Below, piece by piece: positions 28,120 through 35,346 of a stretch of 46,000 nucleotides of DNA; position 1 is the stretch's first letter; every line of letters begins with the position of its first letter. Made by a program: the position numbers and the translations under genes. The notes below the pieces were generated by a model. It had not been told where the DNA came from. It ran no database searches and saw only the letters and a program-made list of their open reading frames with translations. Source of the stretch: a bacterium (GTDB taxonomy: Bacteria; Zhuqueibacterota; Zhuqueibacteria; Oceanimicrobiales; Oceanimicrobiaceae); assembly GCA_046757525.1 (NCBI GenBank), contig JBHHYI010000011.1, positions 1-46,000 on the forward strand, written 5' to 3'.

Positions 28120-28153
28120 AAAATAAAAACCAGCACGTTGTGCACCGTGCTGG
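28120..28153 (-). terminator. Rho-independent terminator closing the FtsZ/ParA operon
   Basis: Perfect 8 bp stem CCAGCACG/CGTGCTGG with an 8 nt loop, followed on the minus strand by TTTTTATTTT. Confidence 0.8.
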
Positions 28154-28216
28154 CCAGTCATAGCGAGGATTTTGGCCCGTGGTTTGTGCCTATCAAGAGG
28201 AAAGGGGACAGCAATC

Positions 28217-29458
28217 TCAATCCGGATGATCGCTCTTGTTGATGAATCTCTTCAGATAGGATCCAAATTTGTTGATGGGAGAGTTGGTCTCTTTGCCGTT
28301 CAGGACCTGAGGCAGGACGCTTTCTGTGGATTCAGCCTCCGGCTTCTTTGACTGGGTCAATTCGGCCTTCAGCACCTTTTCAAAGTTTCTGGAAAGCGCC
28401 TGGATGACTTCTTCGTCCGCGCGGGAGCCTGCCAATTGATTGTTTAAGTATTTCAAGGATTGATCCAACAGATCCAAAATATATTCCGGCACCGGTTCAG
28501 TTTCCAACAATTTTTCGTACGTTAGTTTCTTGAGCGAATCGATAATCAGAATCAGATTCTGGTCCTTGGAGCTCTTAACCGACGTCTGCAAGGCGTCGCA
28601 AGCCTGGCGAATTTCCTGAACTGCTTCCACCGACAATGGGACCATCTGCAGTTCATAGACTGCCTGTTCTATGGTATCCAGGTATCTCTTGTCCTCTGAG
28701 GTGAGGCTTTGTCTTTCAACCACGGTGGCTTCCTGCCGGCGCCCTTGTGAATGGCTGGGATCATTAACCGGGCTCGACAAGACGGTGGTCACCGGCAGAC
28801 GTTCGGGATCGTCAGATTTCTTCGCCTCTGATCCCGCGGAACCCGCTAAGGTCATAATGGAATCGAGCTCCCGAATATCGAACAGATCATCGATTTCGTT
28901 GCCATTTTCCCTGCCGGAAGTCCTGGTCTTTCCATCGCCGTCGTCGAGGAATCGAAACGGCAGCTCCAACTGTCTGGCAAACAAGCGATCAAATTTCCTA
29001 CCTAATCTGTCGGTGCAGGCCTTGATTTTTTTTTGTCGAATTTCTACCTGTTCGTCGAGTTTCTCCATATTCATCTGCAACTCAATGCGCTCTTCCATTT
29101 CCAGCACTTTGTGGATGGCACCAGCAGCAATCTGTACTTTTGAAATAAAGTCCTTGTCCAACGTGTACTGTTGCTGCAAAATCCGGCCGGCGGCAGACTT
29201 GATTTTTTCGGCGATGTTTTCAACCCCCTCATACCCGTGAATCATTGCCAGGTCTTCAATAGACTGGGCTGCATTTTTGAGTTTGCTTAGCCCCTGGCTC
29301 TTGCCTTCACCATTTGCCAGTCCTGACAAAGACAAATCGATTTGCTGGAGATGCCTGCGGACCTCGTCAAAATAATAGTACCTTAGTGAAGTTCTACCGT
29401 CAGAAGACTGTGGAACTGGCAATGAATCTGGGGGGCCTTCGACCATATATATTTTCAT
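28217..29458 (-). CDS. Hypothetical protein with two His-less Hpt-like helical bundles and a C-terminal amphipathic helix
   Basis: 'YFDEVRRHLQQIDLSL...LKNAAQSIEDLAMIHGYEGVENIAEKI' follows the Hpt pattern with Q at the His site; a second, weaker repeat; C-terminal 'INKFGSYLKRFINK'. Confidence 0.7.
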   Translation of the reverse strand: MKIYMVEGPPDSLPVPQSSDGRTSLRYYYFDEVRRHLQQIDLSLSGLANGEGKSQGLSKLKNAAQSIEDLAMIHGYEGVENIAEKIKSAAGRILQQQYTLDKDFISKVQIAAGAIHKVLEMEERIELQMNMEKLDEQVEIRQKKIKACTDRLGRKFDRLFARQLELPFRFLDDGDGKTRTSGRENGNEIDDLFDIRELDSIMTLAGSAGSEAKKSDDPERLPVTTVLSSPVNDPSHSQGRRQEATVVERQSLTSEDKRYLDTIEQAVYELQMVPLSVEAVQEIRQACDALQTSVKSSKDQNLILIIDSLKKLTYEKLLETEPVPEYILDLLDQSLKYLNNQLAGSRADEEVIQALSRNFEKVLKAELTQSKKPEAESTESVLPQVLNGKETNSPINKFGSYLKRFINKSDHPD

Positions 29459-29479
29459 ACCGAATAGCCTAAAAGCTTG

Positions 29480-31255
29480 TTAGAACAACTTGTTGATGTA
29501 TTTTACCGCTTCGTCCACATTCGAGAATTCAGATGATCCGTTGTCTGAGAGACTTCTTTCTGCAACCGCCGACACCACGTCCGCTGGTTGCGCCTCCTCG
29601 CCCCTCAGGCGCGTCTTGTTGTCGTAAGGAACGCTTGCAGAGCTTACCGCATCTGCTGTGCTCAGCGGCAGACCGGTTTCTCGTCGCCTGCTGCTCTTAG
29701 ACTTGTTGTTGCTACCCGACGCGTCAAACAGTTGTAGAATGCCGCTCACCTTGCGCTTGAGCTCAGCCGCAGTGCTCTTCGACTTCTCATCTTCGTTGGT
29801 CAGCCCTGAGACGGTGGACGGCAGCAACCTGAACAACTCGATGACCCCTTCGGACAAGTCAAATTCGCCCTGAACCGCTTTCTCAACGATGGTGGCCATG
29901 GGGCTCATCAGCTCTGCAATGCTTTGGTAGGAAAACAGTTCTGCCGAACTGTTGATCGACGCCACAGCATTCTTTATCTCGCGCAAGTACCGCTCATTGC
30001 CGGAACGATTCCCCACAGCCAGCCCGCGAACAGCCTCCTCCAAAACATAGAGATCTGCCCGGGTCTCCTCCAGAAATATCTCTGAGAACACCCTGCCGCC
30101 CTGTTTTCGCGAGGTGGTTTCAGTCGTCGCTTTCTCAACGGATGCGGGCGCCTCTACTTCCCTGGCCGGCGCGATCGTCTCTGTCTGGTTATCCTGGCTC
30201 GCCCCCCCAACTTGGGCGACTTCTTGTTTCTTGATGGCCATGTCGATTTCAACTGCCGAACGCTTGGTTGTTTGCAAGCAGGTTGCAATGAGCATCACCC
30301 GTATGGAATCTTTCAGCGACTCATCAAGACGGGCTCCCCAGATGATCTTGGCAGAAGGGTCTAACCGTTGCGAAACGACTTGCATGACCGTCCTTGCTGA
30401 TTTCAGTGACATCTCCTGGCCACCCGTGATGTTGATGAGTGCGCTTCTGGCTCCGGTAATGTCCACATCTAACAACGGATTTTGCAGGGCTTTTTCCGCA
30501 GCTACTTTGGCAACATCTTCCGGCGGGCTGTCGCCATCGCTCTCTCCGAGTCCAATCATGGCCATGCCACCATTCTGCATGATGGTGCGCACATCGGCAA
30601 AATCCAAATTCACCAACCCTTTTTCAGTCACCAGCTCGGTTATGCCCTTGACGGCATTCACGAGAATCTCATCGGCGACTTTGAAGGCTGCGCCTAAGGG
30701 CATATCCGGGACCATTTCCAGAAGCCGGTCGTTCTGCACCACGATGACCGTATCCACTTTAGATCGCAGTTGCTCCAGACCTTTCTGAGCGTTCTCCCAG
30801 CGAATGATGCCCTCCTCGGTAAACGGCAGCGTGACCACCGCAATGGTCAAAGCGCCACTTCTCTTGGCTATTTCAGCAATAATCGGTGCGGAGCCCGTGC
30901 CGGTGCCACCTCCCAATCCACAAGTGATGAAAACCAAATCGCTGTTGGCAATCATCGCCTCTATTTCTGCTGCGTTTTCTCTTGCGGAGTCTTCCCCGAT
31001 CTTGGGATCGCTGCCGGCACCCAGACCATTGGTAATATCTTTGCCGATAAGGACCTTGTGGTCAGCCGTGGCAAACAACAGGTCCTGCGCATCGGTGTTA
31101 ATGGCAATAGCCTCCACACCTTTAATGCCGACTTCCAATAATCTCGAAATGGTGTTGTTGCCCGCGCCACCGGCGCCTATGATATGAATTCTGGTCTTGT
31201 GAGCCCCTAATACGGCTTCCAGTTCTTTGTCTGTCTCTACACAATGCTTGGTCAT
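29480..31255 (-). CDS. ftsZ: FtsZ-family GTPase (archaeal FtsZ1-like) fused to a C-terminal His-less Hpt-like domain
   Basis: 'GAGGAGNN', 'NTDAQ', 'GLGAG', tubulin signature 'GGGTGTG', 'PF..EG..R', T7 loop 'NLDFADV'; ~250 aa extension containing 'FSEIFLEETRADL...'; ATG at 31255 (alternative TTG at 31282). Confidence 0.93.
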   Translation of the reverse strand: MTKHCVETDKELEAVLGAHKTRIHIIGAGGAGNNTISRLLEVGIKGVEAIAINTDAQDLLFATADHKVLIGKDITNGLGAGSDPKIGEDSARENAAEIEAMIANSDLVFITCGLGGGTGTGSAPIIAEIAKRSGALTIAVVTLPFTEEGIIRWENAQKGLEQLRSKVDTVIVVQNDRLLEMVPDMPLGAAFKVADEILVNAVKGITELVTEKGLVNLDFADVRTIMQNGGMAMIGLGESDGDSPPEDVAKVAAEKALQNPLLDVDITGARSALINITGGQEMSLKSARTVMQVVSQRLDPSAKIIWGARLDESLKDSIRVMLIATCLQTTKRSAVEIDMAIKKQEVAQVGGASQDNQTETIAPAREVEAPASVEKATTETTSRKQGGRVFSEIFLEETRADLYVLEEAVRGLAVGNRSGNERYLREIKNAVASINSSAELFSYQSIAELMSPMATIVEKAVQGEFDLSEGVIELFRLLPSTVSGLTNEDEKSKSTAAELKRKVSGILQLFDASGSNNKSKSSRRRETGLPLSTADAVSSASVPYDNKTRLRGEEAQPADVVSAVAERSLSDNGSSEFSNVDEAVKYINKLF

Positions 31256-34584: not shown

Positions 34585-34614
34585 GAACAACTCCTCAAAA
34601 GATAGCTCAAGTTC

Positions 34615-35283
34615 TTAATTATAATAATATAGAAGTACTTTCCAATCTTTTAAAATGGTTCTCTTGATCTCAAATGTTTTAGAAATCATCCTGAAATTGC
34701 CCCTACTCCAATTCAAGATGTTAAAAAGAGCAGACTCGCCTTTTAACTCCCCACATTCGGCATGAATGATCTCACCGTTCTTGAAGTAAATGTTGCCTTT
34801 CTCCTTGTCCCTGGTGATCATCAAAGAAGAAGTGCGTTTTGTCGTACAATTGAATTCCACCAGTTCCCGGATTCCCGCGCTGTAGAAGTAGCCTTTGAAT
34901 CCGAATTTATCCAGATTCAGGGCCTGTAGAATGAGCTGTTTCAAATGACCGATGTCGAAAGGTTTTTCGATGTAATAGAAGCCCCCTCGCTTATCCACGG
35001 CCGTCTGAATGGCTTCGGATCCGTAGGCGGTCATGATGATGATCTTTGTCTGAGGATATTTCTGACGAATATCCATCAACAATTGCAACCCACTTCGTCC
35101 TGGCATGCGAATGTCGGAGACGACGAGGTCAAAGCGAGCCTTTTCTAAGAGTTGCCAGGCGTCATCTCCCGACAGAACACATTCAACTTCCAAAGCTCCA
35201 CACTCTTTTTCCAGGCTTTTGGCGATTCCCCAAACCAAATCTTCTTCGTCATCAACGATTAGAATTTTTTTTGCTTTTGACAC
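34615..35283 (-). CDS. Response regulator with C-terminal DUF4388 (PatA_N-like) domain
   Basis: REC 'IVDDE...SDIRMPG...MTAYG...EKPF'; C-terminal 'GFKG......ELVEF.......KGNIYFKNGEIIHAECGELKGESALFNILNW..GNF'. Confidence 0.85.
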   Translation of the reverse strand: MSKAKKILIVDDEEDLVWGIAKSLEKECGALEVECVLSGDDAWQLLEKARFDLVVSDIRMPGRSGLQLLMDIRQKYPQTKIIIMTAYGSEAIQTAVDKRGGFYYIEKPFDIGHLKQLILQALNLDKFGFKGYFYSAGIRELVEFNCTTKRTSSLMITRDKEKGNIYFKNGEIIHAECGELKGESALFNILNWSRGNFRMISKTFEIKRTILKDWKVLLYYYN

Positions 35284-35330
35284 TTAAAGGCTCCTTAAAT
35301 CAAATAAAATAAAAAGATTAATTTGCTTTG

Positions 35331-35346
35331 TGCAATTCCCATGCCA
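35331..35346 (-). promoter_or_regulatory. sigma54 (-24/-12) promoter
   Basis: Minus strand TGGCATGGGAATTGCA = TGGCAY-N5-TTGCA with exact GG-N10-GC spacing, ~48 bp upstream of the first operon gene and just downstream of an NtrC-family gene. Confidence 0.85.

Follow-up and report, generated by a model that had tools for sequence, protein, structure and literature searches.

The 46,000 nt window analysed here (contig JBHHYI010000011.1, assembly GCA_046757525.1, of the bacterial phylum Zhuqueibacterota) carries on its minus strand an operon built around a second FtsZ, which, judged by its sequence, is firmly of archaeal type and which ends in a histidine-less copy of the P1 domain of CheA (hereafter P1*). 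The operon probably encodes an undescribed, signal-controlled cytoskeleton of archaeal origin. We suggest, with belief and doubt in about equal measure, that it forms an accessory FtsZ filament, gated by signals and positioned by ParA, which marks a site of local wall remodelling. The phylum, candidate division KSB1 in the source names of close homologues and below, has since been renamed (PMC11683472, in part, where ftsZ is not mentioned). Literature searches, with subscription papers and bioRxiv supplements outside their scope, returned no description of the system. Read 5′ to 3′, the six open reading frames (ORFs) and their parts are:

34615..35283, minus strand: REC-DUF4388 (PATAN-like) response regulator, called by Pfam
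33763..34590, minus strand: orphan ParA/Soj-type ATPase, called by Pfam
33323..33766, minus strand: single-domain REC protein (Pfam), its presence variable among relatives by synteny
31313..33301, minus strand: 662 aa scaffold, from a predicted model and structure match
29480..31282, minus strand: archaeal-type (FtsZ1-like) FtsZ with a C-terminal His-less P1 domain; start possibly ATG 31255
29711..30109, minus strand: P1* tail of FtsZ (residues 392-524), from a structure match
29483..29518, minus strand: neutral amphipathic C-terminal helix of FtsZ, replacing the bacterial or archaeal C-terminal peptide
28217..29458, minus strand: 413 aa protein with two His-less P1 domains, an FDIxE motif and a basic amphipathic C-terminal helix, from profile and alignment
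28120..28155, minus strand: intrinsic terminator (hairpin and T-run), before guaB

The six genes are presumably co-transcribed, judging from their spacing: successive gaps are 24, -4, 21, 30 and 21 bp, the 30 becoming 57 if FtsZ starts at ATG 31255. An initial annotation had described six tightly spaced minus-strand genes between a sigma54 box and a terminator, and its order, sizes and spacing all hold. Searches of Pfam and NCBIfam gave Pfam calls of REC plus DUF4388, ParA-family, REC, and Tubulin plus FtsZ_C; the 662 aa protein had no Pfam match, and for the 413 aa protein there was just one to Hpt, below threshold. The terminator stem (28155-28128, plus T-run) folds at -22.1 kcal/mol (z -3.7), with 1 of 200 shuffles equally good; taken together, terminator-like sites are no more frequent in the region than chance predicts (13 found versus 14.4 expected), and a hairpin of at least -14 kcal/mol strength with a T-run occurs at 14 of 34 loci, counted without a control run.

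Since the source genome is a fragmented metagenome bin (5.09 Mb in 438 contigs, 96.9% complete), an artefact of assembly or binning, or a relic in decay, has to be weighed. This explanation is refuted in practice by conserved synteny, which extends through dozens of genomes. The initial annotation had named unconserved gene order and the lack of any other ftsZ among the findings that would refute its own proposal, and neither applies here. The flanks are bacterial housekeeping genes, GC content at third codon positions (0.62) is like that of the neighbours and the FtsZ active site is invariant, all of which leaves an artefact or relic a vanishingly small probability.

Tubulin/FtsZ matches in this genome number exactly two: the operon FtsZ and a 403 aa copy on contig C78, encoded after mraY-ftsW-murG-ftsQ-ftsA in the division and cell wall (dcw) arrangement and ending in a bacterial-type peptide. 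The supposition of a second, non-dcw ftsZ was thus borne out, as was the absence of dcw genes nearby (none in the window by Pfam). The operon FtsZ is not monophyletic with dcw FtsZ, has no dcw context and lacks a PAFLR-type end. Its best PDB match is the archaeal FtsZ1 of Methanocaldococcus jannaschii (PDB 1FSZ/1W58; 398 bits, 57% identity), with which it shares an N-terminal helix; the best bacterial entry scored 279 bits. Mean identity of the window FtsZ core is 55% to 15 archaeal FtsZ1, 47% to 8 FtsZ2 and 45% to 15 bacterial sequences (FtsZ1 labels came from score and from secE-spt5 context seen by eye, part of the bacterial labels from C-termini). The lineage consensus has the FtsZ1 state at 9 of 9 columns diagnostic of FtsZ1 versus FtsZ2 and, at 15 columns separating FtsZ1 from bacteria, the FtsZ1 state at 11 and the bacterial state at none.

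Trees of 79 rows, of 64 (15 dropped) and of 42 (a further 22 dropped), in which the named archaeal references represent two phyla plus a few Asgard representatives, place the operon FtsZ consistently. The KSB1 second copies form one clade, which falls with the archaea across a split supported at 100/100 in the careful tree of 42 rows and at 100 in both quick trees (79 and 64 rows). An approximately unbiased (AU) test rejects grouping the operon FtsZ with KSB1 dcw copies (p 9e-9). Placement within the FtsZ1 clade is supported at 92 in the 64-row quick tree and at 76/79 in the 42-row careful tree. On these sequences FtsZ1 affiliation is favoured, not proven, because the AU test rejects neither grouping with FtsZ2 (p 0.26) nor a sister-group relation to the archaea as a whole (p 0.23). 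Top scores to archaeal FtsZ were to FtsZ1 from the phylum Aenigmatarchaeota (up to 409 bits), and the 64-row quick tree paired the KSB1 clade with Asgard sequences (support 81). The gene may have originated as an ancient paralogue rather than by transfer. A 2023 survey of FtsZ detected no transfer between bacteria and archaea (PMC9871819, in part); its alignments include at least two KSB1 sequences, and both of those listed are, by eye, of ordinary bacterial type. Tandem ftsZ1 duplicates occur in Thermoplasmatota genomes (L039-L043), and four archaeal-side FtsZ proteins of 424-518 aa (P0139, P0146, P0147 and P0148, with P0147 grouping with Asgard sequences) end in basic amphipathic segments, not a GID motif.

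Accessory bacterial FtsZ paralogues are taken as bacterial duplicates, and the magnetosome FtsZm is another second ftsZ outside the dcw cluster. The KSB1 FtsZ differs from such paralogues in its archaeal type and its folded, signalling-derived domain. Agrobacterium FtsZ1 and FtsZ3 and rhizobial FtsZ2 are likewise encoded by second ftsZ genes outside that cluster (bioRxiv 412759, in part).

We searched 133 phylum genomes at least 85% complete with the FtsZ core (positives at least 340 bits, dcw copies at most 300) and found the second ftsZ in 79, of which 78 also held a lower-scoring FtsZ match; leaving aside G139 (positive) and G136 (negative), both flagged as unpublished, the count is 78 of 131. 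Contigs with source labels such as Calditrichaeota or Cytophagia match genomes of the KSB1 phylum. Two genomes, G085 and G090 (96-97% complete), gave no FtsZ match at E 1e-40.

Seventy-five loci from 74 genomes, the window included, were compared; as related genomes they are non-independent samples. Three forms emerged: expanded (46 genomes), minimal (NtrC-REC-ftsZ; 20) and stand-alone (8). The expanded form further includes ParA, a pair of His-less-P1 proteins and, in most cases, a lytic transglycosylase with a membrane anchor. This 230 aa SLT protein has an N-terminal hydrophobic stretch; of the 44 expanded-form genomes that could be assessed, 41 carry its gene, placed after REC and before the 662 aa gene. 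Its catalytic motifs are in 41/41, and five of its genes carry their own sigma54 box. In the minimal form, REC alone stands in place of REC-DUF4388, with DUF4388 not present, and the REC gene adjoins ftsZ at 19 of 20 loci (the exception lies on a 2 kb contig). All eight stand-alone genes belong to one family (f10), some amid polysaccharide genes; at four f10 loci (L036, L080, L083 and L084) an FtsZ of 711-898 aa with a long low-complexity linker is encoded beside glycosyltransferase, heparinase-like and TPR genes. NtrC, REC and ftsZ-P1* alone make up the oldest core in common. The initial annotation was right to see a second-FtsZ operon and overlooked its archaeal type, the common transglycosylase and this smaller ancestral core.

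The GTPase motifs of the operon FtsZ are intact, with N225, D227 and D230 of T7 and the T4 glycine loop (G122-T127) in 59/59 sequences. In the predicted model (predicted local distance difference test, pLDDT, 84) the P1* tail matches CheA P1 with Z 16.3 and a root-mean-square deviation of 2.6 over 124 residues. A P1-like tail is present at 74 of 75 loci, the sole miss being truncated by a contig end, and in 0 of the archaeal or dcw ftsZ loci compared; among minimal-form FtsZ the tails are 55-93% identical, despite loss of the histidine. The neutral C-terminal helix is not in the minimal form. Archaeal FtsZ is recognised by a C-terminal GID motif and a SepF anchor (PMC8178401, in part). The GID motif is not at the operon FtsZ C-termini, and SepF was above cut-off in 0 of the 133 phylum genomes (control signal in 7/14). 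The operon FtsZ also differs from archaeal FtsZ1, which has been characterised as a scaffold (bioRxiv 2020.06.04.133736, in part), in its bacterial host, its fused P1*, its sigma54 operon and, at loci across the phylum, the lack of the secE-spt5 neighbours seen by eye at archaeal reference loci.

That a dcw copy nearly always accompanies the second ftsZ would suit a protein that modulates or inhibits the housekeeping ring by co-polymerising with it, leading to filaments or delayed division. Co-polymerisation is possible for accessory bacterial paralogues (bioRxiv 412759, in part), and some KSB1 relatives may be filamentous. We nevertheless find such a role improbable: identity to the dcw copy of the same genome is only 45%, the intact T7 residues suggest a dynamic polymer rather than a cap, and the operon has its own ParA and candidate anchor. 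It is possible, if doubtful, that KSB1 bacteria have two independent FtsZ systems, the usual FtsA ring and a second ring, derived from archaea and needing neither SepF nor FtsA, which phosphorelay proteins would gate directly by docking on its tail and which would serve a distinct developmental division or budding step. If true, this would combine cross-domain FtsZ transfer with an FtsZ that has a built-in signalling input, neither of which was found in our literature searches.

The two other P1* proteins have the makings of scaffolds. The 662 aa protein (model pLDDT 72) comprises a helical N-domain (residues 11-136), for which Pfam, PDB and Atlas gave no family, and His-less CheA-P1 domains at 270-394 and 520-643, with a modelled match to CheA P1 at Z 16.4; an acidic helix motif (about 459-478) in its disordered linker is kept in 33/42 of the family. 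The 413 aa family profile matches CheA P1 (E 7e-5) and can be aligned with both neighbour proteins; the alignment shows the 413 aa protein to be a paralogue of the C-terminal portion of its 662 aa neighbour. Its FDIxE motif (31/32 of the family, and 17/59 FtsZ linkers) likewise sits in disordered linkers and is related to the acidic helix motif. Histidine occupies the phospho position in 0/59 FtsZ tails, in 1/42 for each domain of the 662 aa protein, and in 1/32 and 0/14 of the other two P1* copies. The KSB1 domains thus share the five-helix bundle of CheA P1 and HPt proteins (Z 16.3-16.4), a fold confirmed by profile and structure searches, and have lost the phospho-acceptor histidine; unlike CheA P1 and HPt, they form part of FtsZ or recur in scaffolds that have no kinase core.

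Among 32 aligned 413 aa homologues, 17 long forms end in basic hydrophobic segments. The helix in the window has a hydrophobic moment of 0.78 and charge +3, and 13 of the 17 long ends resemble what we take to be the MinD membrane-helix consensus, which makes this helix a candidate membrane anchor.

Upstream of the operon lie:

35331..35346, minus strand: sigma54 -24/-12 promoter, from sequence and conservation
35420..35432, minus strand: IHF-like site between enhancer and promoter, from sequence
35529..35545, no strand assigned: palindromic enhancer-like site TGGTC-N7-GACCA, from conservation versus shuffles
35553..36923, minus strand: NtrC-type sigma54 activator (REC-AAA-HTH), called by Pfam
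36930..43524, minus strand: signalling genes (REC-GGDEF cyclase, HAMP-PAS kinase, REC protein, two REC-PAS hybrid kinases), called by Pfam; candidate inputs

The source genome is expected to hold 0.016 sites as good as the -24/-12 box per 330 nt. Across loci the box scores at least 5 of 7 in 54/56 and at least 6 in 36/56, with 0 matches upstream of six control genes, and every class keeps it ahead of the REC gene. The palindrome recurs with at most two mismatches in 35 of 45 intergenic regions (about 1.9 of 45 when shuffled), in most loci 105-200 nt upstream, and is the best site in the source genome. The IHF-like site, scored against what we take to be the IHF consensus, has a strict match at only 10 of 45 loci. 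An NtrC-type gene lies upstream at 51 of 75 loci, with a conserved recognition helix and GAFTDA as loop 1 in 47/51, and is likely the activator of the operon; an RpoN box protein is encoded on contig C1. At sequence level, box, upstream enhancer, cognate activator and rpoN are all present. Conditional sigma54-driven expression, as first proposed, has gained conserved promoter and enhancer motifs, from which we infer the expression itself.

A second NtrC-type gene and fliA (C1:90818-93712, L150) are preceded by a sigma54 box, and 116 nt upstream of that box there is again an enhancer-like palindrome, with a degenerate version 100-116 nt upstream of the box in about 9 of 12 family loci; co-regulation with flagellar genes and self-regulation of the second activator are both possible. 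This palindrome, the descent of P1 domains from CheA and the commonness of CheW in families with a second ftsZ would all suit an operon that positions motility or chemosensory machinery (flagellum, receptor arrays), with the transglycosylase opening the wall for it. We consider this very doubtful. The second ftsZ co-occurs only partially with CheW or FliG, and kinship confounds the comparison. In family f10, 10/14 genomes hold the gene and 0/14 hold FliG; family f4 has FliG in 4/4 and no second ftsZ; and FliG is missing from most minimal-form families. The source genome, at 96.9% complete, has no CheW match, which weakens the initial suggestion that chemosensory clusters are positioned. The same genome has a large flagellar gene cluster (C1:122000-160000) despite lacking that match, and at C155:3921-5690, beside motA/motB-like genes, encodes a 589 aa protein that has a signal peptide and matches FliG_C weakly, a type found in several families with the expanded operon. 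A FliA-type sigma was considered as a developmental sigma tracking the expanded operon and rejected, such genes lying mostly in flagellar clusters.

The operon ParA has a deviant Walker A motif whose lysines, together with Arg191 and Arg217, are present in 39/39 sequences; from Soj, we take these arginines to be DNA-binding. No parB lies beside it at the loci compared, and a separate parA-parB pair is on contig C97. In Myxococcus xanthus, PomXYZ likewise clusters an orphan, DNA-binding ParA with deviant Walker A with two interaction-rich proteins and places FtsZ (PMC12288465, in part). PomXYZ, however, places the housekeeping FtsZ, whereas the KSB1 operon encodes a dedicated second FtsZ, REC proteins and a wall hydrolase, and its scaffolds are P1 bundles. 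The system would work like a ParA-placed FtsZ but stands outside bacterial FtsZ, the archaeal SepF system and HPt proteins.

REC-DUF4388 retains phospho-Asp57 and Lys107 in 50/50 sequences, and the operon REC proteins keep the phosphorylation pocket. It has both domains of PatA-type (PATAN-REC) regulators in reverse order, and Anabaena PatA interacts with the divisome (bioRxiv 2021.06.11.447907, in part). A complex prediction for the FtsZ P1* tail with a REC domain scored 0.01 (mark 0.32), which is evidence neither for nor against contact. The cyclase, HAMP-PAS kinase and last hybrid kinase lie upstream in most relatives too, and the core common to all classes (cyclase, kinases, NtrC, REC and ftsZ-P1*) would fit an FtsZ in the service of signalling: a scaffold that brings receiver domains, kinases and the diguanylate cyclase together at one place, serving as a hub for polarity or as a phosphate sink, to which wall remodelling would have been added late. 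The three proteins between them offer five P1* pads on which REC domains could be sequestered, and DUF4388, being PATAN, is tied to spatial regulation (bioRxiv 2021.06.11.447907, in part). The ParA, scaffold and transglycosylase genes nonetheless stay together across two classes, and a pure hub needs none of them; we judge it unlikely, with some room left for it.

For the signal-gated accessory filament that we prefer, the history and mechanism would run as follows. An early KSB1 ancestor would have acquired an archaeal FtsZ, most likely FtsZ1; its SepF-binding end would have been swapped for a histidine-less CheA P1 copy and the gene put under two-component control. Upstream kinases would phosphorylate the NtrC-type activator, which would bind the palindrome and open the sigma54 promoter. 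The induced FtsZ, going by its active site, would form its own GTP-driven filament apart from the FtsA-anchored dcw ring. Because the P1* domains cannot carry phosphate, they would act as docking pads, probably binding REC domains and the acidic helix motifs of one another. In the expanded form, nucleoid-bound ParA might position the scaffold in the manner of PomXYZ, the 413 aa protein might tether the filament to the membrane, and the membrane-anchored lytic transglycosylase might cut the wall at the marked site. The output would be conditional, localised envelope remodelling, for example non-routine division, budding or pole building. The cellular roles first suggested, developmental division or polarity, are likewise conjectural.

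This reading is supported by the archaeal placement, retention in 79/133 genomes, invariant catalytic residues and conserved promoter and enhancer; by a P1* tail conserved after losing its histidine, the adjacent REC, the transglycosylase in the operon and the absence of SepF; and by the basic, hydrophobic ends of the 17 long 413 aa forms. Several observations weigh against it. The second ftsZ occurs in 17 of 22 families and in none of the other five. ParA, scaffolds and transglycosylase are all missing from 28 of the 74 genomes (20 minimal, 8 stand-alone), and are accordingly dispensable for retention. The transglycosylase gene is missing from the operon in the window and two relatives, the source genome having three close homologues elsewhere (C25, C47 and C6). 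Minimal-form FtsZ ends at P1* without an evident membrane anchor, 15 of the 32 aligned 413 aa homologues are short and without the basic end, and the activator has GAFTDA instead of GAFTGA.

Beyond the operon, two ORFs of the window, at 2402-3658 (418 aa) and 11622-12338 (238 aa), had no Pfam match.

FtsZ is treated as vertically inherited. The retention of an archaeal-type FtsZ in 17 of a bacterial phylum's 22 families departs from this, by whatever route the gene came about. A cytoskeletal GTPase fused to a docking domain derived from CheA P1 offers a directly testable model for signalling control of filament assembly, and hints at an unseen life-cycle stage in this uncultured phylum.

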